DNA of 64,000 nucleotides, from NCBI GenBank assembly GCA_973895155.1, contig OZ316892.1:5426476-5490475 (forward strand), in the 5' to 3' direction. This stretch comes from Marsupella aquatica. Lineage: Eukaryota; Plantae; Marchantiophyta. This document shows positions 29,665 through 55,488 of the stretch, in pieces. The position numbers and the translations under genes were made by a program. How positions within the stretch are numbered: position 1 is the first letter of the stretch; every line of letters begins with the position of its first letter. The notes under the pieces are model-generated. The model was given only the letters and a program-made list of their open reading frames with translations. It made no database searches and was not told where the DNA came from.

Positions 29665-32600
29665 TCACTGCCGTAACAAATTAGCCCGGTTTGCTTCCCT
29701 TTGACATTTTTGGCAAACCCAGAAGCACGTCCGTTTTGTCCCTGACAGATATCTGGAGAGCATCTTAGATTTGTATTGCACTTGATAAAGTTGGAATGTC
29801 TTTGAGATTTGTCCTTGCGCCTTCAAGGGTGCCATCAGGTCCTGAACAAATATCAAATCCGAGTTATGAACAAATCACCCCACTTAACGATCAAACCAGC
29901 TCAATCTAACAATGAGATGGTGTTAGTTTCCTCCTTCAATCTGGTAGATTTGAAGTTAGCGAGCCTACGATCATGCCTAGCCTGTCGGAAACATTGAGAG
30001 CATCCCAACGGGTTTGGTGGCCAAGCCTCCCCAGATCATGCAGAGAAAAGTGTTCATTCCAAGAATTAAATTTCCAAGCCGCTATGATTGAAAGTCGACA
30101 ACCCCACCAAGTCCCTCCAAGCTGACCTCCATTCCAGAAATTGTGCATTCATACTTTCTAATTGGTCTCGGTCGTGGACCATGGCGGGTTGGCGACCGCT
30201 ATTCTTGCTAATACTGAGGGTCGGCAGCTTGGATCTGGCGTGTCTGTCGGTCTGTGAACGACACAAGGGGTACTGGTGGGAAACGCAACAGCAAAGGTTT
30301 CTCTCCATTTGGTTTGTTTGGCGGTTCAGAGGCCAGGCGAAAAGGTGCACTGGTGTAGAAGCTCGAACAAATCTAAAACTGAGTGCAAGAAGGATTTGAA
30401 TTAGAGAGGGGCAAAATAGAGTCTCTTGACCTGTATAATTCCCCATGCCTCTGCCAGAGTACTGTCAACTTCAACTTGGTTGCAATCTACAATGGAAGTC
30501 TTGATGTTGTATATGATATTAGCTCCGGTCAAAGTCGTAGCAACCAGTGGCGCAGCTCCAGCCCACGATGAAAAGTGTGGGATTGCACTGCCGATACCAG
30601 CAGCAACATGAAGCCCAACCTTCGCCAGAATGAACAAGATCTTGAGAGAGCCCAATACAAGGGGCCTCAGCTTTTTGTATGTGTCCCTGACAGGGAGTTC
30701 AAGCACAGATTCAGAAATTTTGATGCGAGATTAAGCTCATCTATAATTCGGACTGGTCACTGCTGATAAAATTGCGGCTGACTTCTGAGATTTGCCTTAG
30801 TTTGAAGAACTCATTTTCACTAGAGAAGATAATCATCTTAGTTTAGACACGTACTGGCAACTCAAATTAAACTTCAGAACAAAAAACTTCCCCTATGAGT
30901 CAGAACCCAACTGTCAAGGAATTCTTTGATATAAAACTTTTAACTTTAGTCTGTCCAATTGAGATGTATAATCGGATTTGGTCCTGGCACCCAAATTATA
31001 TGTTGTACTTTTGAAAGTTACTGCTAACACACTTCAGGACGTAACTTTTCGATTTTCAGCAGTACTACAGTAGCTGTATCTTTGCCCGTAAATTCTTTTT
31101 GTTATGGAATAAAACTCGAAGGGAAGTAAGTGCAAGTGCTTAATTACCCCGGCAACAAGTTGACCAAGGGCAGACCCTGCTGATCCTTGACATAGTGAGG
31201 TTGGTTTGGACTTTCGCACATGAAATGCAGCTTGATAGGTACTCCGATTTGCAAGACAGCCACGAACCGTTGTTTCAAGCTCACGGAGTTGTCTAAAAAG
31301 TAAGGCAACCCGGGCATATCCTGCAACTCTGCGACGGACCCCATGAGTTCGTCCATTTTCTCCACCAGAGTGCTTTGCATCTTTTGGTGGAGCATCTGCA
31401 TATCATCCAAGCTCGCCGCAATATGTGACAAAAGTTTCGTCTGTTCCTCAATCTTCGAAATGACGACGTCCTGCATTTCTCTCAACTGCCTTGAAAGGGG
31501 TACTCTAATTTCCTGTAGTGGGCATCGCAGTCGCACAAATTAATGCCCACGAAGAATTTAGAATGTAGATATCATCCGGAGGCTGGAAAAAAGGAAAAGG
31601 ACTGATCATCATACAATCTAAAGACTTACAGAATGTCGCTCATGAAAATGTGAATTCACGATCGTACCCAAATCACGCGTCATAAAGTGGACACATGCGA
31701 GAAACTATTTAGATGCTGAAATTAAGTTTAAGTGGTTCAAGACAGGTAAGTAAATATTGGCATCTATACACAGTCTGGGCACTCAAAGTGAGGAAGTGAC
31801 TCGGTACATGAGTAGTGCTTACATTGACATACCAACGCCACGCGTCCGGCCCGTCAGGTGGCCCCTCTGGTTCTTCCGATTCACCAGCTGATTGCACAGG
31901 CTGCGATGTCGTTCTGGACGTAGACGGCACTTCAGCGCCAGTAACGTTCTGGACCTCATCAACGGCTTGAAAAAGGCCATATCGCTGTTCACTAATCGTG
32001 ACTCTGTACTTGAAAATAGCTTCTTTTACGTCTAGGAGAGTTAGCATTTGCATCGCCTCGACCCACTCTCCTCTAACAAGGTACTCGTCCTCTGGCACAG
32101 CGGGAAAGAAGTGCCTGTAAATCCTTGACATATCTTGCACGGAATTGGCGTACGAGCCGTCGTCCCAAACTTCCAATTCAACCGACTCAAAGAGTTTTTC
32201 CATCACGGCTTTCGTCAAGTCCTCCTTCAGGACTGCCTGGTTCTTCCTGTGACAGCACAAGGACAGCCTCTCGACGCACTGCGGCCTCAGGATTGCCTCT
32301 TGCAGCGCCACACCTGGGCAGCCCTCTCGAGACGCGCAGAACAGTCGTAGCTGCTCCACAAGATTGGTGACTAGTAAGTGTGAACCTCGTGCCTGGCTGC
32401 AGGACTTCACTAGAATATCCACATAATCTCCGTCGAGAAGACCGTCATCTCCACTCTTCTCCATGAGTATCTCAAGTCCATCGTGCTGCACTATAATCAG
32501 ATTTTTCTCAATCTTGTATATCAACTGCAATTTTGGGCCGCGCAAAAACTTCTGTAGATAGACCTGAAGGTACGGTTCAACACAAGCCTCGTTAATTAAG

Positions 32601-35600
32601 CAAACTTAAAACTCTTAGTGCGTTGATGAACAAACACACCATTCAATTGATTTGAAGGAATGGTCTACGTACGTGCATCTAGCTGGCAAAACAGTCTTCA
32701 GCTGACAGGAAGCAGCAGTAATCCAAGCAATTCACTCAAAGGGTGATTCGATAATATGTCGTCGAGTTCCAGGATCAAAGGTCGCAGCAATAAGCAGGAA
32801 AGAAGAAATGAAATATAGCTACCTGAAACCTTTGGAAAAAGCCAGAGGTTAGGAACGTTCGTGATTGATCCGTGCACTGCAATCGAAGACCACTATAGAT
32901 TGGACGGTTTGACGTTTTGCTGTCGTCCACCGGCCATGATAGCCTCCGTCTGCCTCGGCGAGCCAGGCCGTTGGGGTCGTCGAGAGTGCTTGGAACGAAA
33001 TATGAACAGGTTGGAGGATCAGTTCTCAAGTCTTCTTCGTAGCAGAGTTCCAGCTCCTTCATGAGTCGTATCAAGTCCCCGGCTTTGAATCCACGATAGC
33101 TCCTTCTCTGAATGAAATCCTCCAAGACTTCCATTAGTTTATGGTGAGATAAGCACCCATTTTTGATGTTATGAATGAATGGCTCATAACTTTCATCTCC
33201 TGGCCTAAACAACTCTCCCAAGAAAACCTTACCTAGCCAATTCGGGTCCACTACAACAAAGGACGAATTCGGGAAGTGAATGATGGAACCCACGTCATGC
33301 AAATAAGATGCTACAGCTAGCTCGTTCTTTTTGCGATACGCTGTTCTCATTTCCTGTTCTTCACTGGCAATTTCTGCCGGGACATCTCGAAATAGTACAT
33401 CTAGTTCCTTCATCTCCTTACAAAGATCGAAAAACTTCTCTTGTGTAATGATCGGATAAAAGCTGTGGTTTCTCTTAGCGGTCCACTTTGCCAAGAAAAG
33501 ATTCATCTCCTCGCAAGCAGCAGGTACTTTTGGAAGGGTTGATGAGAATAAAGAATCGAAACTTTCGAGAACATCATCGACAACTTCACGAGCATGTCGG
33601 GCTGACCAGGAATTGATAGCGTGAACCTTAGCGTTAAGGTCCACACGACCTTCGAAGACTCTACTCAATTTATGCACCTGCCCCGTCGTTCTCGCCCACT
33701 CGATGTACCTTTCCTTCCGATTTGACTCAATATTCCCAAACCGTCTGGACAGTTTGTCCAAATGGGTCAACACGATCGAAACTCGTGGTAGTATCCATCC
33801 AGTTTTCCTGCAATTTGAGGTTATGAAACCGAGCCAATAACACAGCTCCTTTTCCAAATATTGGGCTGATTTCTCCTCATCCCAACTACCGTTCTCATTG
33901 AAGACAGGTTTGTTCAGAAATAGGAACACGCAGGCCTGATTAATGTCGGGAAACATGTAATGGCTGTCGTGCAAAGCATGGTACTCATCCTGTCCGGCCA
34001 TATCCCAAACAGCAATATGTTTATCTGTGGAATCTCTCAAGAGCCGTATCTCGATCCCTTGCGTTCTTCTGTCGAAGTAAGATGGGCAAAAACAACTTTG
34101 ATTGGCCATGCACGCTGTTGCTTCAAATATTGATCGGTTGATAGCATTCCCCTGCGTGCCAACCATGGACCTTCGAAGAGTGGTCTTACCTGCACAATGC
34201 ATGCGAGTGCTGCCTTTAATCATCCTCTCATGCTGGCCGGGTACATGGATCCGAAGTGCAATTGACATTGTAGTGTATTCCGGTGTTTTCATTTCCAAAA
34301 AATGATACATCACTCAACCAAACTAAACCAACTATAACGTCATTTTATTGATTTAAAGAAAAAAATTAGAAATTTTGTGAAAAAAAATTAAAAAATTAAA
34401 ATCGAAATTCGAGACTCCATAGCACGTCATGTCATCATGACACTTTTCAAACAAATATGAATTTGTTTACAAAATAAAATTATTTCATTGTTCTTGTTTG
34501 TGGCAAGATTTTGGTAAAACTGAGGACACCATGCCGTAAATCTTGATGTAAAAATATTTGAATGTTTGAAAAATAATAGTTTTATTTACCCTAGGTAACA
34601 AACTGTTCAATTAGTAGAAGGCCCACTTTCCGTGTTTTTTACCCTGAGTAACCGCTGCCCACCCGTATTTTGAATTGTATTTCAATTGAATAATACTAAT
34701 TGTCTCTCGGCAAGTTGATCTGATGACAAAGTAATCGTGGTAATTTTCTTGACATTCGGCTGCCACGAAGGAAGAAGTGGACATGATTCTATGTTGGATC
34801 ACTCAACACTCCTTTCCATGTCATCATTGCAGTTCCTAACTCAGTGATGCCTCTCGTTACTGTTATATTGTCCAACACATGAGGCACGAGCGAACGAAAG
34901 AGAAGCAAGCTTAGCAGGGTTCACTAAGGGTCTCGTTTACGTGCAGATGGTGTTGAAGAGCCTGGGCATGAAAGAAGGACATAGTTATAAGAAATGTCAG
35001 CATATGATCAAGGGAGTCTATGCAGACGATAATGGGAAGGTGGACTTTCAGGAGTTCAAGGGGTCCATGAACTAATTTAAGATTTATAAGTATATTAGAG
35101 TCCGATTTTAAAAATATTTTAAAATAATCCCAAAAATATTTTAACTTTATAAGGATTTTTTTTCTTTTCTTATACTTTAGGGGATTGATACTAATAACTT
35201 GGTGATGGAGAGATTCATATAATGAGACCCCCAACAGTGTATTCTAGCTTGGCCTAACCAAGACCTCCCATTACTGAGTGACAAAACCTCCACGTAATAA
35301 CTACATTCAATTAGTGCAGACCATTTGACCATCTGCCTACGTAGAGACGACGACAACAACAGCAAATGCTGGCACCCAGCTGTCATGAATTATGTCATTC
35401 AAAGGTGCTTCATTAGGACTTGAATATCAGAATGCCAAAACTCTGGACTAACGAAACTCAACTGTATCAGGTTCAGGTACCGTCCTGTGGCGACCTGCAG
35501 CTCCAGGAACCACCATGACACTTTCGCAAGTAAACATTGAAGAGCTATCTAGAGAAACCAACCAAAAGAAAGATCATCAAAGATTTATTTTCAAGTTGAG

Positions 35601-36923
35601 AGTTGAAAACTGACCATCTTAACCGCCTACAGTACATTTTGTTATATATACAATGAGACGTCAGGAGAGAGAAACATAAATCAAGGACTCGCAATTTCCG
35701 AACTTTGGGAGGTATATAGTAAACTACATGTTGTATTGGATAGGAGGGAAAGGACGTCCTTAATAACAATAATATCCTCAGACAGTCTCATTGACATTCT
35801 CATTGATATCCGATTGGACGAAAACGTAGAAACGACGATACGTTGCAGACGCTGGGCGTTACTTACCTGCTCGTGGGAATCCACAAAGGAAAAGGCGTCC
35901 AATCTTGGGTGGGACAAATTGCAATTTGTTCTGTAAGGTGCCGAAGTAATCCGCCAGCCTCTCGTTCCGTCGAAGCTGCTGTTTGAGTAGCGCAGACTGC
36001 CCACTGTTATCCAGTGGTGTTCCCGCCATGTCAATGGAATTAATTTTCCTATTTGCTTGGAGAAGTTCCATAAGATCGACGAAGGCATCGCCAAGCCCTG
36101 GTCCGCAGCGGTACAGATCCATCTTTTCCACCATATGGTTGTCTTTCAGTGCCTCCCAAACCTTGCTCCATTGCGCACGATCGAACTGGAAGGATCGCAT
36201 TCCAAGAGACTTCAAGGAGCTGTTGTGAGTGAGCATTTGCACGAGATTTTCTGCTATTCCCTTCTCATACTCGTAATTCATACTGAATCCTTCGAGAGTT
36301 GTATTGTAATTCTCATCTTGGTGTAAACGTTGCTCGAAGGTGAACAGATCAACCGGTGTGAGGGCTTTCAACAAATAAGTCAGCGGCCCCTCTTGATCGG
36401 GGTGAGAGTTGCCATATCCGACTCCACATGCCAAGTGACGCAGTGTCGTGTTCTTTGACAAAGCCCTGGCCACGGGAACTGTCTCTTCTGCAGTCCATCC
36501 TGGACCCCACATGCCGAGAAACTTTAAGCTTGGGATGTTGTGCAACAGAAGCTCCTCCACCAGCTCAGCCCCTCTCTTTCCGAGTTTGATGTTTGAACCA
36601 ATCTCTAGCGTGGAAAGTACTGAATGGGGATTCTCAAGCAACCCCCTGATGATATACGACAGGCCATCGCCATCCATGCCAACTCCATAGACCGAAAGCT
36701 TCTCGAGGGTCGTGCTTCTCCTCACAAGTTCCCCTAGCAACTTACAGCTCTCGACAGACCCGAAATATGAGCTGTTATCCAGAGACACGGAACGCAGCAC
36801 GGAACGCAGCGGGTTGAACTTTACGTGCTCGAGGAACAATTTGCACTCTGCGTCATTTTGCTCATTGTCTTCCAAAGAATGTTTTCCACCGTTACTTCTT
36901 ATCTGCTCTACCAAATCCTCCAT
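29665..36923 (-). CDS. TORNADO1-like LRR-Roc-COR (Roco) protein, ~1320 aa; exons 36923-35867, 34189-32823, 32563-31823, 31512-31148, 30686-30431, 29841-29665
   Basis: RI-like LRRs (NTTLRHL, NSSLKSL). P-loop GFPRAG|KTT split by intron 1, RRTQGIEI, VWDMAGQ, VLTHLD. COR-type YLHDVGSIIHF...VVVDPNWLG. TRN1-like tail LHFMCE...H and WVCQKC. The six GT-AG exons sum to 3963 nt in frame. Confidence 0.88.
34944..35075 (+). pseudogene. Calmodulin-like (CML) C-terminal EF-hand fragment inside a degenerate MITE in intron 1 of the Roco gene
   Basis: Translates QMVLKSLGMKEGHSYKKCQHMIKGVYADDNGKVDFQEFKGSMN*, matching the plant CML pattern (VL.SLG.K.G....C..MI..VD.DG.G.V.F.EFK.MM). Followed by the family-B MITE end at 35076-35235. 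Confidence 0.7.
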
Positions 36924-37718
36924 GATGTTACTACCTTCGCTTCTGTGACGGCTGGACCAAATCAGATCTGCAGACAGTCAGGGGGCTGGATCAAATCGAA
37001 CAGCCCCGAACCCTCCACGAATGCAATTGATCATAAGAAAATAAGAAAAAACGACTTACGGTGGCACAACTTGTGCCAGAGCAATGCCTAATTGCTGCGT
37101 GAAAATTGACTAAGACCCAAACTAAGACAGGCTTCCTTATCCATCCGTCTGGGGTTCTAACCCAGCTCCGGGATCAAGGTACTTCCCCGTTTGACATCGC
37201 TAACTGTTTGTCGCAGTCGATCGATGACAAAACTATCCAATCCTAGAGAGGTTTCAACTCGATGGAAAACGACACGACACCATTGAAAGCAGCTGTATGA
37301 TTCTAGCAAGACCAACGTATTCGATCCAGTGATATGCAAAGCGATGAACCGACCGAACGACAGAGAACGACGGACCTCTATATACTAACTTATGGAGCTC
37401 TCGAAAAAATTGATCTACGGTGGAACACTGGAACTAGATGGATCGAACCGCCGCCGGTCGAGCCCTCACAGACCCGATCGAGCCCTCATAGATCGGGAAT
37501 GATTTTCTCCTATCCGGCTACCGAGTGAAAAGATAATAAAAATAAAATATAGATACTGCGACTTTTCTTACAATCTTAGTAAATTGCCACCAAAGTTACT
37601 CTCTCCCTGTCTACAGAAAGGACTACACTAGATGCTGTGACTTTTCTTCCCAAATTGGGAAGTTGCCACCCAGTTCACTCAACTCCCTTTTTCCCTGACC
37701 TACACTTTTGGGGGTCTC

Positions 37719-37836: not shown

Positions 37837-37872
37837 AGCAGGGCACTTTTGGAGGTGATTCGATGCCAGCAA

Positions 37873-38085
37873 AGTGATTCCTCGCTCAGTCACCACTGGC
37901 GCTTGCTTGCCTATGAGAGCCGGGTCATTGTAGAGTGATTCCTCGCTCAGTCACCACTGGCGCTTGCTTGCCTATGAGAGCTGGGTCATTGTAGAGTGAT
38001 TCCTCGCTCAGTCATTGTAGAGTGATTCCTCGCTCAGTCACCACTGGCGCTTGCTTGCCTATGAGAGCTGGGTCATTGTAGAGTG
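37873..38085. repeat. 61-bp tandem repeat x3 plus one 26-bp internally deleted unit
   Basis: Units agtgattcctcgctcagtcaccactggcgcttgcttgcctatgagagc(c/t)gggtcattgtag start at 37873, 37934, 37995 (short) and 38021. Confidence 0.92.
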
Positions 38086-39623
38086 CAAGGAAAGAGTAAA
38101 AATTTCCTCGCACGGGCACGTTTTCTCCTGGCAATACCCAAAATTTGTCATGAAAACAGCCTCGCTAGTATAAAGTGACACTCGCTAGCCTAAAAGAAAC
38201 CGTTAAATAAACATATCTATGAAAGTCCCATTGGATTTCAAAACCTATCCTCAGGGTCAATTGGTACACATTACGTATATCCCAAAAAAAGAAGGTGAGT
38301 AAATAACATCATAATTCACCCTAGAATTTGTACGTACATCAAGGCCAGGGAAATTGCTATCCATAATGTTGCCCATAATTCTCACACGAATAATTGTGTG
38401 CGGTCTTGAATAGGACAAAAATCCATGATGAGAAAGGATGGCAACTAACGGTTTCAACGGAAAAACCACGAGAATCCAAAGCTCCCTTCCTCACCATTGA
38501 AGCGTGAACGGACAGGATAGGCAGAGCATGTCCAAATTTACAGTCTCGTGGGTATGGACGTCCACCTCAACGATGAGGATGTGAGTATATATCTATATGT
38601 CAGTTCTTTGTTAAGGCATGGCACTTATGAATTTCAGACTGCATATCAATTTTTGACATTGTTTGGGATGTATTGGATTCATCCAACATGAAATTCTGTC
38701 CACCTTCCATTGCATGCAGATTCTGCCCAACCTGATTGGGCAAATGCGGGTAACATTTGATCAGTTTCAATGTCCACAAGGACATACATGGGTTGAACCA
38801 GGTTGGGAGGATGGTATTGGGTCCTAGAATTGAACAAGGTTGGGAAGGTGGTGAAGGTAATTGACAGGTAATGAATAAGGTTGGGAAGGTGGTGAAGGTA
38901 AAATACAGTACCTACAAACGCTGGAAGAGGGGCACGTAATGTCTGAAGTAGTTGCAATGGAAGAACTCATTCTATCTGTAGTCCATTCATGTGGGTATAT
39001 TCTGAACATGTACAATGATAGCAAATGTATGTGTGCAGGTTGGACAGTCAAACCGTCGACTCAAGTATTCACTAATGCCCCTATGTAGATGCAGTACGGA
39101 AGGGGGGTCAACGAATGTTCACTTGTTTTCCTATGGTTTATTCATTTACTAAGTTTTCACTACAATGTTTGCACATGCATACCTAGAAAGTGACAATATC
39201 TAGAACCGAGCTATCTGGACAACCAACTGACGGGATCTGGATAGCTGAAGATCATTGACTCCGATGCCGAGCTCCCTTATGGTCCAGGCCTGGATAGGCC
39301 ATCCGGGGAGAACTTAACATAGGGAGACTTGTGGGCAATAGGGCGTGGCACTAGCGAAGGCAAGGCCTAAGCTAGTGACAAACACTAAGGACTTAGACTA
39401 GCAACAAGAAGCCTTAAGGGATGAGTCCAAAGCCTTATTTCTCTTTTCAAAATCTTCATGATAAATTCAAAAACGTGTACCAAAAAACCACCAAAAAATG
39501 GTATGTATTTTTCAAACTAGACTCAAGAGAATTTTACCACCAAAATATAAGCATGTATCTAATCTGATATTCTCACAATTGTATAAACCTTGAAATATGC
39601 ACTTTATAAACGCCGTCAAAAAT

Positions 39624-39909
39624 CTCGGGGAACTCAATCCAAGGGGTGTCTCATATCACACTCAAAGTTTTGGGGGAATAAACACCCTAAAAGTTAAGTC
39701 AATAAAGTTTTTCCCCCCTAACTTAATGGAATATTCCCATATTTGATTTTAAAAAACCCTATGATTCTTATAATTCTCAAAATTGGATTAAAATATTTAA
39801 CCCTAATGTTCTTCAACAAAAATTTAAAAGTATTTCACTAAACCCAATAAAAAACCCCTATACTTATTTGCACCTGATGGGTCGGAAGAAAAGAAGTGAG
39901 GACCCCGAG
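39624..39909. mobile_element. MITE family C, 8-bp TSD
   Basis: ctcgggga...gaccccgag, perfect TSD tcaaaaat. Confidence 0.88.
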
Positions 39910-40120: not shown

Positions 40121-42020
40121 CTAAGGAATCTCTTCCTCACTCTCCTCATCCGTATCCCCCTGTCTGTCTTCCTCTTCAATGTTATCTGCAAGGTTAAGAA
40201 TCCTCCCTTTCAACACACTACTCTGTTGCTTGTCAATCTCAATGGCAACGCAATATCTTCCCATGGCCAAGGAGGAGGTTGTCCTAGTCCATGATCCTGA
40301 ACAAATATCCAAAACCCTGTCTCCAACCTGACTAAAATGACTCACTTCCCAATCTAACAATGCATGTGGTTTCTAATATACATTCACTGCCTTGTTATCC
40401 CCATTGTGTTTCAGCTTCTTAATTAGTCACAGTTGTGCATACAACCACATTATTCCTTGATTCATTTGTATCAAAATTGAAGTGCTCCAATGACCGTTTA
40501 CCATCTTGGCTGTGAAAGCCAATTGTAAAGCACTCAAAATTGCTGTTCAATCTAAGCAGCGGGTTCAGGGTTTTCCCACTCTTGCTCATTAATGTCTATT
40601 AATGATCTCCTACGGCATGTAATTTGACCGGAGCCGGAACTGTATTGTGGCAGGTGAGGACTTTGGATTTCAAATTGAAAAACTTAGGAAGGAGATGAAA
40701 GAGGAAAGGGACCAGCAAGACTCAAAGCTGCAAGCATACAAGACACAAAAGGTGGGCAACCCAACACCAGCATTCTTCACATTATCCTTAACCCTGAAAA
40801 ATCATAGAAAGTCAAGGAGTCATTTAAACTTAGAAACATGGTTCATGAAATCATGAACAACTAATAATTAATTAATTGTTTTCTTAAAAAACAAATAATT
40901 CTTACCACACACAATTCTGGAACCCTCCATTACACTCCGCTTTCAAAACGGTCTTGACGGCCTCATAATATTGGTCCAGGCTATGGTGAATGATAATACG
41001 TCACAACTTCGCAGTAGTAGCCACCTTAAACAATTGGACCATCTTTGTGATCTCTTGAAGTCCCCATCTAAATGAATGGTGTCCTCATGAAGACATCCAG
41101 GCAATGCAAACCCGTAGGAACCACCTCATGTAATTGTTGAGCATCATGAGTAAAAATATCATAACGCACATCACCAAACTCTGGGTGCTCAAAAGAATTT
41201 GGATGAAGTTCCCCCTCTTGGGTTTGCCGACTAGAAGTCTTCATGGATAGCCAATTTTGCGCTTGCACAATATGTGCATTGAATTTGTCTAGGAATGACT
41301 TGAGATCTTTGCCTTCTTCATCTCCCTTCTTTTTCCAGGAGGTGGTATCTTTCTGCAAAAGGGAACCTTACAATTAGAAATGGGTTAGAGACAAGGATTT
41401 CAAATATTAAATGAATTCCAACAATCCTTGGAAGAAAGGTGACAGAATCTTACCCATGTTTGGAAAACAGGTACAAAATTCTTAAGCACATTGTTGGTGC
41501 AATGCTCAGGGTACTTGGTTTTGCAACCTGACCAACTCTCCTTGTGTAGACAAGTTAGGAAAGCCTTCTGCACTTGCATCTGAAATTTGTGTCAAGTAAA
41601 TTTGTGGACCATTTCTTGTAAAGAGAGTTCTTTAGTAAGAACTCTCTATAACACTGGGCAAATCATATCAGGATCTTTCAAGGCCTACATGTGTCTCCAC
41701 TCCGTCAATTTCATGTCCTCATATATAAGGCAGTTTGGCATCTCTGGACTGAGAGGCTTTCTTCTTGCCCTTGTCTCCTTTTTGACCATTGATCTCACAC
41801 ATCTCCCACTTGTCACAAATCTACCTCACAAATGACCACACAGGATCTTGTCGAAATGCCAACTGAAATAGGTTATCATTGGCATTTAGAACCCCAATCC
41901 TTGAGATTGATTTCAGTAGCACACTCTTTCTTGAAATCCTGGTTGGACGACAATTGATCCATTTTCCACAAACCTCACGTGAATATAATTTACTCTCTGG
42001 ATTGTCGTCATGTGCGGTCA
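40121..42020 (-). pseudogene. Decayed intron-containing beta-class amino (N4-C/N6-A) DNA methyltransferase gene
   Basis: C-terminal exon reads NVY*KPHALLDWEVSHFSQVGDRVLDICSGSWTRTTSSLAMGRYCVAIEIDK, i.e. HPxQKPxxLL..S..GDxVLDPFxGSGTT..GR..IxIE (motifs X-I-II). The upstream exon has IFTHDAQQLHEVVP/(P)YGF. GT-AG intron at 41453-41367 and a donor at 40905. Several stops and frameshifts. Confidence 0.75.
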
Positions 42021-42690
42021 AAATTCAGAATCAATATTATTCACTGAAGGAGAAGTCGTGAAGGAGACCAATGAGGAACAAGAAGAAATTGAGGAAGAGC
42101 CTTCTAGAACACCAAATGAGGATGATCTCAACGACATGTTATTAGATTAGTTAGTTAGATGTGCTAGTTAGAATTTCTTGGCATCACAGTCATGCTGTTA
42201 TCAATGAGAAATGGAGTTGTCAATAAATTTATTGGATTCTGTATTCCATCAAGGAGAACCGTTGTAACCTTTGTTCATGCGATAAATTTATCGGACTTTG
42301 CATTCCACGCTCTAGCTATTCCACTCCCTCCGCTCTAGCTATTCCACTCCCTTGTTTGTCACGATGTTATAGCTGTCGAATGGAGTTGTTGATAATCTTA
42401 TCGGACTTTGCATTCCACGTTCTTGCTATTACACTCCCTTGTTTGTCACGGTGTTCTTGTTGTCACAGTGTTCTAGCTAGGGGAATGGAGGTGTCGATAA
42501 TCTTATCGGACTTTGCAATCCACGCTCTAGCTGGTCTGTCATTACAATAATTTCAAAAAAAAATATCATTATAGCTTTGGAGAACAACATAGTCCTAGAT
42601 GTTCACGATTGCAACCATCCTCATGGGAACGATAACGATTATAACTTAAACCTTTATACTAGCTTCTACTATCAACGACTACAATGTCCA

Positions 42691-45600
42691 TCATTGCATT
42701 TGAATGATTCGTCTTGTTTGTACAGGGAGAGTACTATTTGCCAATAACGCAAAGTTATACGCATAAACGACAATTTTTGCTAGGGACAATTCATCCTCCA
42801 GTACTTTGTTAGACAAAGCCTCTTTCTCCGGATAATATCTGCCTTCAATTGCAGACTCCTCTTCCGAATCCATTGCATACCAAGTAATTTTAATTCGCTC
42901 CGGGATGTCGTTAATTTTTGTGAGAATCTCAGTCACTTTTGTCATCCAGAATGGTCTTCCCTTTGGATCCTGATGGGCTGCTACACATATCATTGCAAAT
43001 TTAGTATTCACCTCTAGATCCTTGAAGTCTCCAATTTCCGTGACTTTTTGCCAACTTCTATACATGACTGTCCTCACACCCGCTATTTTATCAACCAAGA
43101 TAGGTTCCATTGCTGCTTTTGTAGGATTGGTCGTAGGTTCACTCTCTACGCTTACCTTGGGCCAACTCCAATCAAAACTCCAATGTGCGGGTTTCAGGTG
43201 GGATGGATCACTTCTTGTTGTTTGTCAAAAAAACAACCCCACCATATATAGCCGATCTTCATCGTCAAGTAATTGAATCCATCTTCAATTGCTCTCCAAT
43301 ACTTTTGAAGAGTCGAAAAATGATTTTGAGCTGCCCACTCATCTTGTTCCTTAGTATCATTCTCTTGCTCATCATTGTCTCCTATCGCTCTCGTGGCCAA
43401 CTTCAATGCCATTTGTGGTGCGACCCACATTCCAGATGAAGGAATGTCTAGAACAAATTTCACGAGCTCTCCCCAATCTGTTGTCGTGAAAAGATGTTTG
43501 GCGTGGAAGACAGACCGAGCACTTCCATCTTCAAGTACTCTTGTAATCCAAAATTGTTTCTGAGCACTTATATATGCCATGGAGAGTACGCAGGACCTGA
43601 CCATCCATATCTTTGTCATTTGCTTGATCCTTGTCAGACACAAATTTTTTGAAATTGGCAACCTCATCGACAAAAAATATCTTTGCCATAGGATTGTAGG
43701 ATTCCTCTATGATTGCGGAAAGAGTGTCCAACCAAAAAGTTTTTTGCTTGTTCAATTTTGAAGAAAACTTGCTAAATATTTGATCAATTTGATCATGGGT
43801 GTGCCCCACCAACACAAAACCAACCTTTATTTTTTGGAAAACACCTATCTCCACCAACATGTTCAAATATGCCATAAGATATTTATTCTTGTTTTCTCGA
43901 GCAGTGTTATCAAGCTGGAGGTACAGCACTGGAGGGAGCGGACCTTCCCAGGTATTTAGAATATGCTGAATAACGTGGATGGGCAAGTTGCTATCATTGT
44001 GAATATTTGGATAGTTCAAAAAAACATTTGAACTTAATTGTTTGTTGAAGATCAGACAACCCACTACGTGTACAGGGATGAAATACTTTTCATCCATATT
44101 CTTCGGACACCAAATGAAATGAGGTAACTCTGTCTTCTTTTGATCCATTCCATCAATACAGATGCCCAAATATTTCTCCGGACTCTTATAACATTTGCTC
44201 CGGTGCTTTGCTTACTTCTCCCTCTCCACTGCTTGTGCCTTCTGATGCTCGTTTAGCAATGTTGAGAATTTTCCTACAATAATAAAAAGGTTTAGGACTT
44301 TGCTGGCCTGACAGCGATAAATTTATCGGGTTCAGTATTCAAACACGATAACAGTAATGTTAAACCGTGACAGCGATAAATTTATCGGGATTAGTATTCA
44401 AACTGTTCAAACGATATATTCACACACATTACCAAAGAAGAAGCATGGAAATACTCAACCCAATAAAATAATCGGGAGTAACACACGGGTTTAGAAACTT
44501 ACTCTTATTTGCTTCAAGTGTTGCCTTGTCACGGAGTGCTTTGAATTTAGTACACGGGGCACAGGTGAAAAAACAACTCCTTTTGGGGATGCGCATGCGA
44601 GGAAACTCCTTGTTCCAAATGCAAACAAACCATGAATATGTCACGCCTTGTTCTTGGCGCATTAGAGTTTCAGATTGGAAGGTATCAAAAACTTTTGTTT
44701 TTGTCCAATTGTCAGGTAAATGAAAGATAATCTTGTTGGGGAGACTCTCTACATTTGTGGTAAAAAAATCATCTAGCCACTTAATGAGACCAAGATGTGC
44801 GGACAATTTTTCTCTACAAAATGTATTGATCTGTATCTGAGAAAACATGTTCTTTGAGATTTTTTGGAGATGATTATTTCCTAGTGAAAATAATTTCTTA
44901 AAACCACTCCAACAAAAGGATCTACCGCTAACTGAGTAACCGCTTGCACCGGCATGCCAACCCTTCACACATCCTTTTAGAAGTACATTCTTCTCTTGGT
45001 AGGATAGCCCATAGTAATATGTGCGTTGTTTTGTCACGTCTTGCAGACCCAAATTCCTTAGACAAAAATTATCACAACAGGGATACTTATAAATTTCTCC
45101 CATGATTTTGTTTCTATTCAAATTATCGTTTATGACATTGTCTTTCCTAGTAATTCGGTCTCTATCTTTTTCACTAGGCTCATTTGACTTCTCTATAGCC
45201 TGAAATCCGTTGATAACATTAACATTTTTGGGTCCTTTAGGTACCTCGCGAATAGATGCATCACTCTTTGCTGAGCTACCATCCTCCATAGATCTCCTTG
45301 ACGCATTCAGAGGGGCACTGAAAAGGCGACTATAACTATTCTCTTCTACAACTCCTTCTAAACATTCAGACACAACTTGTGCTATGATATCGGATTCTCT
45401 ATCTCCTTCCTGATCTTCGTCCTCTGATCCACTCTACTCATTTGAAAACACAATTGAACTCTGTGGCTCTCTATACATAACCCGAACGCCACTAAGACCT
45501 CTCTGCGACACTTGGAGCCTGGAACCAATCATAGTCTGCCCTGGAGAACTTGGAGATTCTGGATTCACACATGCAGTCTCAACGCCTCCGCGAGCTGCAA

Positions 45601-46180
45601 GAAAACTGAGCACTTGTTTACCATGATTCCCACGGACCATTCAGGAAAGGGCCGAGTCTGGACTTCACAATCCGATTCTCTCGCTTGCTCGCACGTCCAG
45701 TCCAGGCAATGCAAAGATCGATTGCCGTATCGGTCTTTGTATTTCTCCCTCTCGATCCTCACCCGGAGACTGAAAGATCCGTCATTGAACGTGTGTTGAA
45801 TGTGGCGACTTGAATGCCGAGTGCGATACGCCTATCGGTCACGGGATACCCTCTCCATAACCCAAGATGGATGGCCTGAAGTGACATCTCGGACCTAAAC
45901 CTGGGATTGAAAGTTTCTCATTTCTTGGCGATGGAACGCTCAAGAGATGATGCTTCTCATGTTTACTTGGTGACACATAGTAAGAACTGGGCTAAGGACC
46001 AGAACTTGCATCAGAATCTGAGTCAGAGATTTTGGCCACTATCTGCTGTGAGAGAGGTCTAGAGCTTTAAGTATGGGACTTGGCAAACAACGGGCGACAA
46101 CATTAGGAGTGGATTCAACTAAACTTGAAGGTGAATCTGTGTCTGATTGAGACATGGCTATCCGAGACACTATGGGGCTT
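42691..46180 (-). pseudogene. Sola-like (DUF7869-type) DDE transposase, disrupted
   Basis: CIDGMDQKK..PH, LYLQLDNTARENKN, FVLVGHTHDQIDQIFS. Upstream CCDNFCL and FFTCAPC cysteine motifs. C-terminal PFWMTKV...IKITWY SH3-fold-like segment. Split over ORFs 44429-45373, 43531-44169, 43194-43673 and 42691-43110. Confidence 0.75.
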
Positions 46181-46298
46181 TGCATTACTCCCTCAATCAG
46201 GGAAAACGAATGGCTCAGCGGACAAAATGTTGCTCCAAGAACACAACTCCCAAAAATCTTCTCTGGATAATGATGCCAAAAACTTATCGGTGGTGGCC

Positions 46299-46350
46299 CT
46301 TTTATAGTGTCTGTTGACGGGTTGGCCCACGTGGCCACTTTTGATTGGCC
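46299..46350 (-). promoter_or_regulatory. Putative promoter of the transposase (TATA, G-box, CCAAT)
   Basis: Minus strand has CCAAT (~46345), GCCACGTGG G-box (~46330) and TATAAAAG (46306-46299) in canonical order upstream of the ORF fragments. Confidence 0.4.
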
Positions 46351-47078
46351 ATCGCCCTAAATGACAAAATAGCAGAGAAGGGTATATTTCTTGGATTTCT
46401 AATTTCATTCTTGCACGTGCATCGTGACAAAATTATATAGTTTTGAAATTGAAGCAATAAATTTATCTGATGTTGGTATTGCAAAAGGTGTTTCCTTCAC
46501 ATGGAATTGCAATTTTGAAATTGAAGCGATAAATTTCTCTGATGTTGGTATTGCAAAAAGTTTTTTTCATATGGCATGGATAGTTGCAATTTTGAAATTT
46601 AACCGATGAACCGAAGGATCTTAGTATTGTCGGCAAATATTTTTGCCGTCCGTAGTTTTTCCGCTAATTTTATCGGACTGCGCATTGCTGTTGAAACAAT
46701 GGCATGTTAACTATGGTCACTTGTGGAGGTAACTATGATCAATTGCGGAGGTAACTGCAAGGTAAGTTTGACGAACCGTGCAATAATTTCTTATTGACTG
46801 TGATGTAAAATAGTTACGGTAAATAACCAAAAACTGAGATTGAGTCAGAACTTTCATGGTTGAAATCCGGAGTCCGATATAGTTATTGGACTTTGCTCGA
46901 AAAATGGATATGGATTTTTAGATAAGACCTTTTATATATCTTCGGAGAGCGTGAATATGAGGTTCAGGCAAAATTTTTTCGAATCTAATTTTTCCTTTAT
47001 AAATTGAATGTTTGTGAACATTAATTTCAGTGGTTTGGAACATTCCTGAATTTCTTGATTCAATCCGAATTCCAATAC

Positions 47079-47161
47079 GGATTACATTATTTCCCCAAAA
47101 ACCTATTTTTGATGAAAAAACCCACCGATTTCGCGAGATTCGGCGAAAAATGAAAACACAC
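47079..47161. repeat. Subterminal TE segment with an inverted copy at 57233-57315
   Basis: ggattacattatttccccaaaaacct...ttcggcgaaaaatgaaaacacac is the reverse complement of 57233-57315 with few mismatches. Confidence 0.85.
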
Positions 47162-50100
47162 GCCCATTGCTAAAGATTTGCCCTCAGATCTGTCTGATTT
47201 TCACAATCTCCATATTCTCCTACTGGTTGAAATAATATGCTGAGCTATTCGAAGAAAGGTCATCACACGTTAACAAGATCAGTTGACCAGGTTGGCGTGA
47301 CTTGCTACACAGCCACGGCTCTTGTCTCAGCTTGACATATGTGTTTTGGAAGATGCAAATGCTAAATAATTATGTGTTCACTTGACGGAGCTCACCCAAA
47401 CTTATGTGTCACTGGACAACATTCAAACGATGAATGATCCACCGACCAATGAAGGAGGGCCCAAAGCCAGGACCACTCTCTTCTTCCCACATAACCTCAT
47501 AAGGTGTAAGCAGAAAGGTGTGTATCGGTAGCCGGCTTCGGCAAAACAGGGAATAACATACAATTATAACGCAATCCCTTCGAGTGTCCATGAAGTTTAA
47601 TCTCAATCCGAGCCAGACGCGTAGAATTGGGAATTGGGTCTTGAATTGCAGATGACACGATTCATTGTTGCAACCACAAATCGCACAGCGAACAGAATTG
47701 TCTGTAAAATTATCACCTGCTTGCAGGCACTCGGTGCTGGTGCTTGCTGTGTCCCATGACAAAGTAATCAGACTTGTGACTGGACGTCGGAAGTGGGCCA
47801 TGGGAATCATGACTTTCAATATCCGACTGTGGCTTTTGGTATCGAGTAGGGCCATGTGAAATATTCTGTAAAATTTGAATGACCAGTTTTCTCATTTTGT
47901 GTTTCATGGGCGAGGATAAGATGAGGAGCACTTTTCACTCTGGTTTTTGGGAATGATGCGACGTACAGATTACAGTGTGTCAGATCTTTGAGGCTAAAAT
48001 TCCCGTTTTAAATTTTCCATTGCAGGCAGTTCCATAGGAATGCCTTCAATAGATGACAAATGACAGGAAGTGTTGTTAGGTGTCCAGTGAGGTCAACATC
48101 AAGATTAATATAATTGATCAGAGTTCTACTAACATCTCCCTTGCCATGATTGATATTGTACTCGCAAAGTCTTACTTCCCAATCATGCATCCAATCATCA
48201 TCTAGTGTAAGTTCTGCAGCATAGCACACACAAAAAGAATCTCAACCAGTTTGTATTAAATAGTAGCCGAAGTATAGATCATCTTTCCAAATAGCCTCTT
48301 GCACATAATCCTTTCAATAAGGGCCCATATATATCCTTGATTGGAGGCCATTGCACTCCGATGATAGAGTTAAACGTTCCAGGTGGTTTTTCTTGGCCCT
48401 GCATTTGAAAATGCAATCGATCTGGTCACCACTCTCCAGTATAACCAGTGAGACTTGAGATGAACTTTAATTACTCTCATGTTGTTATGCAATTATTCGG
48501 TCTTAAGTCGTCCCACATTTGCCCCACTATAACAAACAATAACCATAGAATAAAAAGAAACCGACCTGGTCCGCTCTGATCACCAATGGTTAGATCTCTA
48601 GGTTGGAATTGGCCCCCACTCGAGAGTCGTCTGAATGCATGGAATCCTGCCCATGAGGCAATGCCAGTCAAGCTAAGGTTGAACAGGCACACATACGTAC
48701 TGTGATTAAGAGCCCTTGCCGTACAGGAATATTTTGTTCCTAGTTTTGTCTCAAATATTGCAGCAATGTCCTTTACTGCGTTATTTAATGGATTGTGCAG
48801 AAATTTCATCGAGTTACTTATGTGGATCATCCTCAAAGACTTCGGCAACTGGGCTACCAAATGATATGTAACTAAGACATTCGACAAGACTTTTCCACGA
48901 AGAAAAAGACTCTTGGCCTACAAAGACGGAAGGACTCAACCTGGTTTAATTGGTCAATCAGTTGTCGGTGGGGCAGGGATGTAATCATCACTCTCTCCGT
49001 CCCTCTTCTTTCTAGCTGTCCCTTTTATAAGAGGCTGCTTCTGCGCCAGTCTCGAGGCCGTGTGGGTCACTTGGGGTGTCACCCGAAGGAGTTGACAGTA
49101 GTCTTTGCACATGTACTGCTAGAGATCACGCTGGGATCACAGATGCGCCCGACAATCCTATTTATCTGTTCCCCAGTCCTGACTATCACCGTGGAATATT
49201 TGCAAGGAAGCTCGCTGGGAACACACGCAAGTTTCGTAACATAAAACGGAACATTCTCACTTTGCTGGGTCAGTATTACACATACTGTCTAGTTTATGAA
49301 TGAGAATCTCAATTGTTCTTTCATAGTTACCATGAATTTAAATTATGGCGAAAAGAATTGGAACTGCAGAATTGCAAAATTGCAAAATTCATGGCACTGC
49401 CCTGGAATTGAAATGCAAGTGTAAAACAATTTTGGATCATAACGTTTGATACAAATTAGGTTCCAAGGAATAATTATCACAATTTGTTGGAAGCTTTATT
49501 GAAGATTGAGTCTTAATTTGGAAATGATTTATCTTATTCTCGACCCCATGACCAATTTATTAAAAAAATCCTGGACTATGGTTACCCCATGTTAGTGTTT
49601 CTAGTACAACAGAAACAACACACTACTACTTTGTTTATCACAAACTAAAGCTAGGATGGATCTTCACTTTGTCTATGAAGTCCATATGGACTCGCAAAGC
49701 TTGGATGGACTTGCTCAGAACATTTAACTGAATCAGATAGCATCGGGTACACTTTATTGATTGAAATGTGACCTGTAAATGGTCTCCTTATCATTTGCAA
49801 AAGATTTCAATTACGTACATTACCGAGTTGGTTTCCTTGATAACTTGACGACCTTGAACCTGAAAGACATCAAGACGTCATGCCATTATTTAGGATCACC
49901 ATGTCGTCTTGACTACTAGTTTTCTCCCCAAATTAGTCGAAGTCGTCAACTGCAATCTGTGACCGGTTCCTTTTTCTTTTCAGTGTTAAAGCCATGATAT
50001 CTTGCTTTACGCAGTCTTGGTCCATCCGGGCTTTTGTTTCTTGTTTATCATGACACTAGCAAATATCATAAACCCGAGAATAATAAAAACTTAAGAAACT

Positions 50101-51077: not shown

Positions 51078-53130
51078 TATTGTTACAGACCTGTGAGGAT
51101 TCTCTTTTAAAATTTTCTAGCACATGGTTGCACCATGTTAACTCTTAGTTCCATCACAAACACAAATGGTGAAAATGAGCTCCAACAACCCATGTGAGAG
51201 AACATTACTAGTTTACTCACAACCATAAAAGGCAGGGCCCGTCCACAACCTAATTTTCATGTTACTCAAATACTAACAATAGCATCCTAAGATCTGGGCC
51301 TAACATGCATCAACAGAGAATTTTAACTACAAGTTCATTATTGCAAACCTGTTTGGGCTGAGATTTATTATGTTGGTGTAACCTAGCTTGGGACCTGGCT
51401 ATGTTGTCCAAAATAATTTTTAAGAAAAATGGATATATCTCAAAAACCATTTATGACCCGCATCAAACAAATCAGATGAAAGAAATTGAAATGAAAGTAA
51501 CACAAACTGGAAAAAGTGAGTTAGGATTTAGGGACAATAGAAAAAAACTAAAACTAAGTGGACGATTAGGGTGGGCAAGGAGTGGGAAGGTTTCAGATTC
51601 ATTTGCAACTTTTGGTCTAGTTGGGCTTTTGTTGTGCTTTAACCACTGTCTAATTGGTTTCACTTTTGTTGAGTATTAGTTTAGGATTAGCCACCAATTA
51701 CTTGAACTTGGTAAGTTAATTGACTGCATGGATTGAAGTCTAAATTGAGACACCATGGTAATTGTTCTACTTACATAAATTGCATGGAATATCCAGCAAA
51801 GGAGGTTGGCAAATACAAAGACGGGAACCACTAATTCATTCAATCTTCTTATGCATGTTACAATACTATACTATATAAGGTTTTGGAATGAATATTATTC
51901 TACCCAGTTGGGCACCTTCTTGGTATTGGCAAATTAAGCATGGTCCCACTCACTCTCCTAAACCTCAAAATAAAAAGGATTGGGGATCACCTTAAATCCC
52001 AAGAGTACGTAGGTGATTTATTTTCTGTAGTTTGTGATTCAAACTGGCAAATGCCTCAAAGGTCTAGGAGGGAAAAGATCGATGTGGGACCCATCTAATA
52101 TACACTTATAAATTAGGTGTTGTATTTGGTATCAAATTGTGTATTCCTATTATTTTTCTTTGTATCATTTCACCAGGAACTGAAGAAGGAAAAATTTGTA
52201 TACCTAATAAAAATATTTAGAGTGCTTATAAGACACTTTTTTTTTTGGTAGGCTCAGATAGAAGACTGTACTCGTGGACGACTCTAACTTAGTTTGCGCT
52301 GTTGAGACACTTTAGGGATAACTTCAGCACAAAGTTTTCCCCTCGTTGCTACTTTTCATGTACTAAATTCGCTTGATTTGTACTTCGATCACACGGATTA
52401 CAAGTGTTCCTTGTGAGATCAAACCATGTGCTTAATACGACTCCTACAAAGCTACCAAAGAAGGCCGCGTCATCAGCCGAGGTCATCAACCCATCATCGA
52501 ATCTATTTACTACCCGTACAGAGCGAGGCCCCCAAAGAATGGAGACGAAGGTGGGGGAGAGGCCGGGAATCAAGGACCGTCTTCGATCGAGTTTCTACAG
52601 CCAAGCATCTCCAAGTAGGCGCGGCAACCAGGTCCAATTGACAGTCACTACCAGCGTGTCGGACGAGTCCAACGGGGAGTAGAATGATCCACTATTCTAC
52701 TCTTTACGGTAGATATTTCAATTTGAAACTAGACTTCCGATCGAAATGTGCTTTATGTTCCATATAGGTAGCCCACAAGGGCAGCAGGATCTAGATTGTG
52801 CCCACGAGAGGATTGCCGCCCGTCTGAAAAGGAAGAACACCCGCTTGACACTTAGAACTCGCTTTGGTCTCCTCTTTACTCGACTCCTTCCTGTGGAAAC
52901 TCCGTTCAGTGCGGGTCAGAATGTTTCAGAATATAGGCGGGCACTGATCGGAGGGTTCTAAGGTTATTCGATATACACTACTGCGGAGCTGGGTGCCGGG
53001 GCTGGGTGCCAAGGTGGCCATTTGTTTGTAGAAACGGTGGTAGGACAGCAGTACGTGGTTCGACTGGGTTTGCTTCACCCTCCGTATTAGGAACGGTAGC
53101 ATTTCTCGGAACCGTCTCTTTGACAAGACC

Positions 53131-55488
53131 ATGTATGTAGATATGGCTTCGATAAATCGAGGATTGCTGCTGACTCTAGCAATACTGTATCTTACTGTTT
53201 CTCTTCAAGGGGGCTTGTGTAGCGCTGATTCAGGGTCATGTACAAATGTGCCCTGCAGCTCTGGCCTCTGCTGCAGTCAATTTGACTTTTGCGGCCCTTT
53301 TGACAGCTACTGCGGAATTGGGTGCCGCAGTGGCCCTTGTTACGCCAATTCTAGTGGTTCATTCGGATCGTGTTTAAATCAGTTCTGTGCCGATGGATTC
53401 TGCTGCAGTGCCTCGTACTACTGTGGTAACAATTCCAGATATTGCGGAGTAGGTTGCCAAGATGGACCGTGTAATAGCAATTCAGGTGGTACAAGTCTGA
53501 ACAGCACTGGTGCGACTACCGGATTGGCGTTTGCCTTTGTGCTAGGGACTATAACATTACTTGGGAATGTCTTCTCTACCACACCCAGGCGAGTACGCGG
53601 CTCTTCGAGAAGTCGAGGATGGTTTCTAACCTTCGGACTGCTATACATTATGGTTTCGCTGCAGATGGGCTTGAGTAGAGCTGATACAGGATCTTGTATA
53701 AATCAGGCCTGTGGCTCTGGCTTCTGCTGCAGCCAGAATCTCTATTGTGGTCAAGGTGACAGCTATTGCGGACTCGGGTGCCGAGGTGGTGCTTGTACTA
53801 ATAACTTTTACAATACTTCAGGATTATGTGTGAATCGGGCATGTGCTGCTGGATTCTGCTGCAATTTGAATTATGTTTGTGGCTCTAATGGCAGCGATTG
53901 CGGAGACGGGTGCCAAGGTGGCGCTTGTTACAGCAATTCAGGTGCTACAGCTCTGGGCAGTATTGCGAATCCTTGGTTTGCTCGAACCTCCGTGGTAGGG
54001 ACAATAACATTGCTTGTGGCAGCCCTCTCCGACAAGCCGATTCGGGTAGGCGTCTGTTCGAGGAATCAAGGATGGCTGCTTACCTTAGCACTGCTTTGTC
54101 TCATGGTTTCGCTGCAGGTGGGGTCGAGTAGAGCTGATAACCCTACCGCAGTCGGAATGTGTACAAATAAAAGATGTCCCCGCACTGGCGACTGTTGCAG
54201 TTCCGACAACTATTGTGGTCCTGACTCCAGGTATTGCGGAGCCGGGTGCCAAAGTGGCCCTTGTCACTCCAATTCAGGAGGGAAAATTCGGGGCACTGGT
54301 GCGATTTTCGGAATCGCTGTGGGCTCCGTGGTTGGGGTTCTGATGCTGAGGGCCTGTGTCGACTTTGCGGCTCGGCGGCGTGCGCAAAGCACCAAAAAGG
54401 GCCAGATCATTGCGGGACAGAGCATTGGCAACGCAAGGGATGGTCGTCTGGATATCACATTTTCCAGTCCATGGAGGAGATTTGGACTTGAAGAGTTGCA
54501 CTCGGCTACCGAGGGGTTTAGTGAGGAGCTTGGGAAAGGAGCGTTCGGGATTGTTTACAAAGGAGTTCTTAGAAATGGGAAGGAAATAGCCGCCAAGAAG
54601 ATGACCACTAGTCAAGCGGTTGTGAAGGGCTTTGAGGCGGAGGTGAAGACTCTTGGAAGCATCAATCATGCAAATTTGGTGCAGCTTCTTGGGTTCACCC
54701 ACGACCTAAATGAGCTGTATCTGGTCTACGAATTTGTGGCCAAAAAATCTCTGGATTATTGGATATTCGAGAAAAAGAAATCTAACAAAGACTTCGTGTT
54801 GACTTGGAATAGAAGAGTCACCATTCTCAAAGGGACCGCCAAGGGCCTAGCTTATCTCCACGAAGATCTCCAGGGTGGGAAGGCTATAGTTCATCTTGAC
54901 ATCAAACCTCAAAATATTCTCCTTACTGAATTCTACGTACCCAAGATAGCAGATTTTGGATTGGCGAAGCTGCTGGGATCGGACACAACTAAAGGAACCC
55001 TCATTGCTTCTCCAGGGACAATAGGTTATACGGCTCCTGAAGTTCTTCATGTAGCAACAGTCAACCCGAAGCTGGATGTCTACAGCTTCGGCATGGTACT
55101 GCTCGTGGTGGTGGCCGGTCGAGACTATGTTGATAGCTCCTTGGACTTCGATAGGTTCTACTTGCCTGCATGGGCCATTCGGAAATTCAAACGAGGAGAA
55201 GAACTGGAGGTTGTTGACCCTCTCTTACGAGATGATAGACGTGAATTTAGCCAGGTAGATGTGAATTTAGCCAGTACATTCATTCGGATAGGTCTTTTGT
55301 GCTTACAACGAGATCCAAACAAGAGACCTGCAATGAGCACGGTGTTAAGCATGATGGAGGATTTTAATAAGCATCCGGACCTGCCCCCGGATTTGCAATC
55401 AGAGTTGGAGATGATCGAAAGAGAATTTCGCCCGAGACGAAATACGATATTCTCAGATAACTCTACAGAACGCCTACGAGCGTATTGA
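53131..55488 (+). CDS. Intronless receptor-like kinase with five hevein (chitin-binding type 1) domains in three SP-hevein-anchor modules; non-RD kinase (start probably ATG 53143)
   Basis: Five 8-Cys CCSxxxxCGxxxxYCGxGCQxGxC-type repeats. TM AIFGIAVGSVVGVLML then RRR. Kinase motifs LGKGAFGIVYKG, IAAKK, HANLVQLLG, IVHLDIKPQN, DFG, GTIGYTAPE, DVYSFG, CLQRDPNKRP. Confidence 0.92.
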   Translation: MYVDMASINRGLLLTLAILYLTVSLQGGLCSADSGSCTNVPCSSGLCCSQFDFCGPFDSYCGIGCRSGPCYANSSGSFGSCLNQFCADGFCCSASYYCGNNSRYCGVGCQDGPCNSNSGGTSLNSTGATTGLAFAFVLGTITLLGNVFSTTPRRVRGSSRSRGWFLTFGLLYIMVSLQMGLSRADTGSCINQACGSGFCCSQNLYCGQGDSYCGLGCRGGACTNNFYNTSGLCVNRACAAGFCCNLNYVCGSNGSDCGDGCQGGACYSNSGATALGSIANPWFARTSVVGTITLLVAALSDKPIRVGVCSRNQGWLLTLALLCLMVSLQVGSSRADNPTAVGMCTNKRCPRTGDCCSSDNYCGPDSRYCGAGCQSGPCHSNSGGKIRGTGAIFGIAVGSVVGVLMLRACVDFAARRRAQSTKKGQIIAGQSIGNARDGRLDITFSSPWRRFGLEELHSATEGFSEELGKGAFGIVYKGVLRNGKEIAAKKMTTSQAVVKGFEAEVKTLGSINHANLVQLLGFTHDLNELYLVYEFVAKKSLDYWIFEKKKSNKDFVLTWNRRVTILKGTAKGLAYLHEDLQGGKAIVHLDIKPQNILLTEFYVPKIADFGLAKLLGSDTTKGTLIASPGTIGYTAPEVLHVATVNPKLDVYSFGMVLLVVVAGRDYVDSSLDFDRFYLPAWAIRKFKRGEELEVVDPLLRDDRREFSQVDVNLASTFIRIGLLCLQRDPNKRPAMSTVLSMMEDFNKHPDLPPDLQSELEMIEREFRPRRNTIFSDNSTERLRAY

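Follow-up and report, generated by a model that had tools for sequence, protein, structure and literature searches.

The region at positions 40121 to 47161 of the window (the whole 64,000-nucleotide stretch of Marsupella aquatica DNA analysed here) contains three gene remnants: a DUF7869 transposase that is dead, the end of a methyltransferase gene (MTase-B) and a larger relic of another (MTase-A). The reading we favour, with a probability of about 0.58, is that a deletion has joined parts of two sister transposons, whose accessory proteins are predicted to have methylated the DNA of their own element. Element B would have run from a ParB-like MTase-B gene on the plus strand through a palindrome array, the transposase on the minus strand and further palindromes to the right end, and element A would have supplied the MTase-A relic with a palindrome of its own. 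In intact copies the N-terminal part of the accessory protein, helical and ParB-like, would bind the element's 14-bp palindromes in the way ParB binds parS, and the protein would methylate element DNA close by, with adenine N6 a likelier target than cytosine N4; this might keep the element transcribed by countering silencing, or mark it for its transposase.

Gene remnants and palindromes in the window

The features that make up the region are listed in Table 1. The DNA of the window is that of a land plant, repeat-rich and with host genes that bear introns, and the closest named homolog of the MTase-A relic is a Calypogeia fissa protein, P0001, which aligns to six collinear pieces of it (41726-40157) at 55-79% identity. 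The fragment at 40121-40372 (minus strand) matches PF01555 with E 7.7e-4 and 19.9 bits, under the cut-off of 26.7 bits that intact homologs exceed, and in the ESM Atlas the last MTase-A exon piece groups with N6_N4_Mtase clusters at 0.96. Compared with L002, one of two metagenome loci discussed below, motif IV has been deleted, about 11-12 codons being missing before PYG and the gap ending in the first half of the motif, and there is a frameshift near 41118; further stops and frameshifts occur, motif I is altered, and the 5' part, comprising the ParB-like domain region, is lost at 42040. The initial annotation, made from the letters alone, had described a dead beta-class methyltransferase relic with spliceosomal introns and a deleted motif IV, all of which holds; its extra helical N-terminal region is present as well, as what is left of a longer N-terminus truncated at 42040. 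The 213-bp insertion is skipped by contigs in three of four runs, and no source for it was found in the window, the loci L001 and L002 or 125 proteins. Where the window has a stop, at 40375, contigs from each of the four runs have a sense codon, so other MTase-A copies are less decayed. A word-indexed search with the MTase-A C-terminal fragment gave no match.

Table 1. Features of the methyltransferase-transposase region (window coordinates)
Feature	Position	Strand	Basis
MTase-A relic, beta-class amino-methyltransferase pseudogene	40121-42040	-	profile match, homolog alignment, loci comparison
GT-AG intron of MTase-A	41353-41453	-	same position in L001 and L002
GT-AG intron of MTase-A, with palindrome-like TCATGAAATCATGA at 40843-40856	40794-40905	-	introns placed as in L001, L002
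Insertion in last MTase-A exon, 213 bp	40554-40766	.	joint 40553 to 40765/40767 in X1, X3, X5
Deletion junction, 14-base filler resembling neighbouring sequence	42041-42054	.	loose contig ends, sequence
Last 31 codons and stop of second methyltransferase gene (subfamily B), convergent with transposase	42055-42150	+	C-terminus match
Intergenic tandem array, four copies of CGATAAATTTATCG palindrome	42221-42509	.	repeat and motif search
DUF7869 DD(D/E)-type transposase pseudogene; N-terminus low-complexity, start approximate; stops, frameshift	42691-46160	-	
Transposase GT-AG intron, three palindrome sites	about 44502-44274	-	
Upstream/subterminal palindrome sites	46276, 46455, 46527, 46662, 46875 (46276-46890)	.	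motif search
Approximate right end of repeated unit	47079-47161	.	94% match over 83 bp to 57233-57315

The transposase inferred at the outset from DGMDQ, LDN and GHTH is real: all three motifs are present, and 43531-44211 (minus strand) matches DUF7869 with E 2.8e-47. Sola is a putative name given by analogy, DUF7869 being what the matches showed; Pfam matches for Sola domains were lacking in 2017, according to PMC5751038.

Between the junction and the palindrome array, the plus-strand frame matches the exact C-termini of two among 125 proteins, P0049 (E 2.8e-10) and P0063 (E 1.2e-8), the latter a PF01555 protein with DIPY as motif IV. The scores of 79 and 76 (next best, 52) were reached by 0 of 20000 shuffles and 0 of 300 best-of-125 shuffles, and a loose contig end left of 42055 resembles by eye the next upstream residues of both proteins. 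A quick tree (104 rows, 146 columns, built from proteins with a match of at least 55 residues to the window's C-terminal piece) separates a B clade of 9 rows from an A clade of 28 rows that includes the window relic, with SH-aLRT 98 for each; the two subfamilies are 38% identical over the catalytic domain. From the tail match and the separate clade it follows that a second methyltransferase gene, surviving here as 31 residues that are partly acidic low-complexity, faced the transposase tail to tail. One X1 contig (depth 137) joins this tail to the palindrome array, and X2 contig 14 (depth 1536) covers 42555-42769 and so reaches the end of the transposase; no one contig covers the B tail through the transposase, so that their linkage comes from the window and a chain of short contigs, and no single sequence with an intact MTase-B gene and the transposase was obtained. 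That the transposase family carries MTase-B is, in our estimate, very probable.

The two sides of the region carry distinct palindromes. Palindrome B, CGATAAATTTATCG, is 14 bp long, and 12 of its 13 sites at up to 3 mismatches lie in 42221-46890, between the genes, in the transposase intron and upstream, with none in MTase-A; at up to 2 mismatches no site in the window falls outside 42221-46676, and L001 and L002 have none. The motif that had been seen to recur from 42280 to 46680 was borne out in a search with GATAAATTTATCGG (up to 2 mismatches), which gave 15 strand matches against 0.52 expected, all in 42222-46676, a count reached by 0 of 100 shuffles. On the other side, the last MTase-A intron holds one of two window matches to TCATGAAATCATGA (0.14 expected), and the same intron holds TCATGCTAGCATGA in L001 (3215) and TCATGATATCATGA in L002 (4375), of the form TCATG-N4-CATGA. 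This form has three matches in L001 and four in L002, against 0.01 expected, with a centre specific to the locus and repeated upstream. At L001:307-380, TCATGCTAGCATGA sites are centred in longer perfect palindromes of 32 bp.

Other parts of the window deserve a short record. An insertion of 299 bp at 39611-39909, MITE-like and of very high copy, is skipped by an X1 contig of depth 1125 and has relatives at 24900-25206, 21162-21310, 27492-27588, 23786-23862 and 1925-2014. Near-perfect tandem repeats of 61-75 nt occupy 37863-38085. By eye, 31144-36977 (mostly minus strand) contains LRR and ROC/COR-like gene pieces that resemble the liverwort TORNADO1-like family, and 53044-55488 (plus strand) is an intronless ORF of 814 aa that combines a kinase domain with hydrophobic segments and repeated Cys-rich modules of a chitin-binding-like kind.

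Intact homologs and the catalytic motif

Loci L001 and L002 are metagenome contigs of 3.6 and 4.8 kb, the two loci obtained from 510 candidate stretches in one metagenome scan, and carry nearly complete MTase-A genes with both introns at the same positions; contigs of this length are too short to reveal a transposase. No related loci were found in viral contigs or prokaryote genomes. In Calypogeia, related genes lie on five different contigs, and among 10 relatives looked up, two are named as Riccia sorocarpa (P0040, P0050) and one as Ginkgo biloba (P0046); Marchantia is not among the names of 17 query proteins looked up. The Ginkgo protein (Gb_37443), with the motif variants DIPH and GGCNS, takes the family into a seed plant. 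Two further observations concern these relatives. Five distant ones (P0055, P0057, P0059, P0077 and P0082) have a C-terminal Cys/His-rich stretch that by eye resembles a PHD-type finger, a possible chromatin-reader fusion, and L002:2-703 (minus strand), upstream of MTase-A, is a divergent ORF rich in Ser, Asp and Pro whose frame contains TCATG palindromes and for which profile and protein comparisons gave no match.

P0001, P0003 and P0063 score 32.7 (E 9.4e-8), 48.7 and 30.5 bits against PF01555. In the homologs motif IV lies N-terminal to SAM motif I, and the model of P0001 (mean pLDDT 67, above 80 over most of the catalytic domain) shows the beta-class fold; a fold search places CcrM at the top (E 2.8e-14), with the PvuII and rotifer N4CMT folds matching nearly as well (E 8e-11). 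Motif IV, which the initial annotation proposed to read in intact copies as either SPPY or DPPY, turned out to be neither: it is DIPY in L001 and L002 and in every protein scored by script, 6 of 6 in clade A and 3 of 3 in clade B, with DIPS in the clade-A protein P0029 outside the script's set and DLPR, DIPH, DFPY and DVPY in more distant relatives. No protein of clade A or clade B in which the motif is covered has SPPY. As described in PMC8885841, SPPY goes with most 4mC enzymes and DPPY with 6mA enzymes, and by this split DIPY without SPPY makes 6mA the better guess; the predicted product thus leans to 6mA over 4mC, which the DIPY motif does not settle.

The intact clade-A homologs also have a long N-terminal extension with a conserved domain marked by a GGNHS motif, which by eye resembles ParB. 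Profiles of Pfam, NCBIfam and the PDB gave no match to this domain. Its model is poor (pLDDT 35), and the top seven Foldseek ranks are ParB, KorB or Noc at E 0.19-0.65, the best Z being 3.7, to PadC over residues 123-255 of this poor model from subfamily A; taken together, the domain looks weakly ParB-like.

It is possible, if on the doubtful side, that the accessory protein binds DNA as a helper without catalysing anything, acting in anti-silencing or as a transposase cofactor, or that the palindromes are sites of the transposase itself, with no methylation in either case. Catalysis may indeed have been lost, DIPY being non-canonical and some relatives reading DIPS, DLPR or DIPH, and a helper would also fit the putative ParB arginine patch, which reads GGNHS and not the canonical sequence. 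Palindrome placement can be read the same way: VANC proteins bind motifs that lie in introns, between genes and in the terminal regions of the element encoding them (PMC5735166), as the palindromes are placed here. Against this stands the retention of D-x-P-Y, QKP and the SAM motif D-L-C-x-G-S/T-G across subfamilies A and B at 38% identity; in full-length PF01555 proteins of the outgroup clade, moreover, the second residue of motif IV is likewise non-proline (DLPY, DMPY). On balance the sequences lean towards an active enzyme, by a modest margin of confidence.

The junction and the number of elements

In X1 and X2, contigs mapping to 41700-42900 have loose ends after 42038-42040 and ahead of 42055, and the one past 42040 continues MTase-A, by eye, into its N-terminal domain. 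Because loose ends lie on both sides and other copies continue past 42040, we read 42041-42054 as a deletion junction with a short filler; among 32 of 499 contig pieces none bridges it. A junction had been flagged at about 42020, correctly as to its existence, its deletion nature having been missed. An acceptor-like stretch at this place was considered as part of an intron and dropped, since other copies continue in frame past 42040.

With MTase-A and the B-transposase side each having its own palindrome, two sister elements are favoured, and MTase-A probably comes from another element than the transposase. The initial annotation had proposed a plant cut-and-paste family carrying its own amino-methyltransferase on the strength of relic A; the proposal stands by way of the MTase-B tail, contiguous with the array and the transposase, and the link of relic A to the transposase is probably secondary in view of the deletion junction and the different palindrome. 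Were there instead one large element with MTase-A, MTase-B and the transposase, this copy would be an internal-deletion derivative and the original linkage would hold. Such an arrangement, which we think unlikely, would account for the short templated filler, of a kind typical of gap-repair deletions, for the divergent ORF upstream of MTase-A in L002 and for the similar summed depths of the A, B-tail and transposase parts in X1; giant algal elements, too, carry fixed nested insertions (PMC12477816). Palindrome B, however, is never found in the A part, L001 or L002, MTase-A having its own, and depths are uncoupled in other runs: summed contig depth, a weak measure and not a copy number, is 1704-3890 for A-like bins against at most 11 for B-tail bins in X6, and in X2 the A bins are severalfold above the B and transposase bins. 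As evidence on one versus two elements, depth is mixed.

The repeated unit of methyltransferase remnants and transposase is present in many copies, one MTase-A contig in X1 having a depth of 1761 against 37-58 for contigs identical to the window flanks, and this copy is dead. The unit fades near 47161-47400, and summed X1 depth, with the same weakness as a measure, drops from 2177 to 193 after the bin ending at 47415. The second copy of the right-end sequence, at 57233-57315, diverges from the main copy at 47161 and adjoins an apparent Copia-like LTR. Neither a TIR nor a TSD was found, comparison of the right end with 36.9-40.2 kb giving no inverted match; the left end of element B would fall in the deleted part. 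A repeated stretch at 38570-39170, with 37-nt tandem units and a summed depth of about 6000 in X1, may represent element A's left subterminal region.

Relation to known systems

The self-marking transposon design is already in print for algae (PMC12477816; bioRxiv 10.1101/2025.02.11.637652), and the window region likely extends it to land plants. In Ectocarpus, Sola1-1_Ec32 has a gene of 1104 aa with ParB and N4C/N6A methyltransferase domains opposite its transposase, and self-modification was proposed (PMC12477816). The likeness lies in a methyltransferase gene on the strand opposite the transposase, which the B tail matches in orientation and adjacency, and in a putative ParB-like domain, seen here in subfamily A; relic A differs in being co-directional with the transposase. 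The brown-algal element is intact, 21.5 kb long, with a 282-bp TIR, AACCG-CGGTT termini and a 4-bp TSD, and the best match of its transposase is listed as Sola1-1_PPa_tp (PMC12477816), whereas the window element, likened to it by description, is from a land plant, dead, and shows two methyltransferase subfamilies, each by its own palindrome. Plavaka elements of red algae (Bostrychia) encode PAG2, with PF01555, and PAG3, which is ParB-like, beside inverted-repeat arrays proposed as binding sites (bioRxiv 10.1101/2025.02.11.637652); the combination of transposon-borne domains and adjacent arrays is alike, but the transposase is of the EnSpm/CACTA type and the domains occur in separate genes as MTase-SET and ParB-2OG oxygenase fusions. 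VANC proteins of VANDAL elements likewise go with short motifs that are specific to the family, have spread by tandem repeats and lie in introns, between genes and in terminal regions; they differ in that these are Mutator elements with an unrelated protein, 5mC loss and a motif that is not palindromic (PMC5735166).

With the bacterial enzymes CcrM, M.RsrI, M1.MboII and M.PvuII the family shares motif IV before motif I, QKP and the fold, at 15-22% identity, and it departs from them in having DIPY in place of DPPY or SPPY, spliceosomal introns, a long N-terminal extension and no restriction partner. MpDN4MT1a/b of Marchantia and N4CMT of bdelloid rotifers are likewise eukaryotic bacterial-type beta-class amino-methyltransferases; in what we have of their descriptions they are SPPY-type 4mC host enzymes, not presented as transposon cargo, and N4CMT has a chromodomain and silences transposons. 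The lead of the initial annotation towards a 4mC writer related to MpDN4MT1, with transposons spreading or seeding such enzymes, is very improbable: beta-class order and fold are common to 4mC enzymes and both occur in liverworts, but the close intact homologs lack SPPY and have a long N-terminal extension, whereas MpDN4MT1, compared by partial description, has TSPPY and is said to be without extra domains. We see no sign of a tie between the two.

The available part of Iyer 2016 lists ParB-linked eukaryotic methyltransferases and no such plant transposon family, methyltransferase passages were not found in PMC13317346 or PMC10288648, and a non-exhaustive literature search, which missed both algal papers, returned no land-plant report of a ParB-methyltransferase transposon family. 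A wider picture, offered tentatively and in our view doubtful, is of diversified transposon ParB-methyltransferases in non-flowering land plants and Ginkgo, in which each subfamily would have its own 14-bp palindrome (TCATG-N4-CATGA for A, CGATAAATTTATCG for B), ParB/parS-like loading and 6mA self-marking. What is added here to the algal cases is one from land plants with a kept D-x-P-Y, two subfamilies and two candidate target palindromes. In the algal papers, binding and modification of a transposon by its own accessory proteins is no more than a proposal, and intact land-plant frames, in L001 and Calypogeia, together with two candidate pairs of protein and palindrome make it directly testable. 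If active, these proteins would give plants DNA methyltransferases, for adenine or N4-cytosine, that stem from mobile elements, and 6mA and 4mC calls made in bryophytes could be confounded by them. If each subfamily does address its own palindrome and writes 6mA, they would form a co-evolving, sequence-addressed means of self-marking, and plant genomes would contain a source of adenine methylation that has been overlooked.
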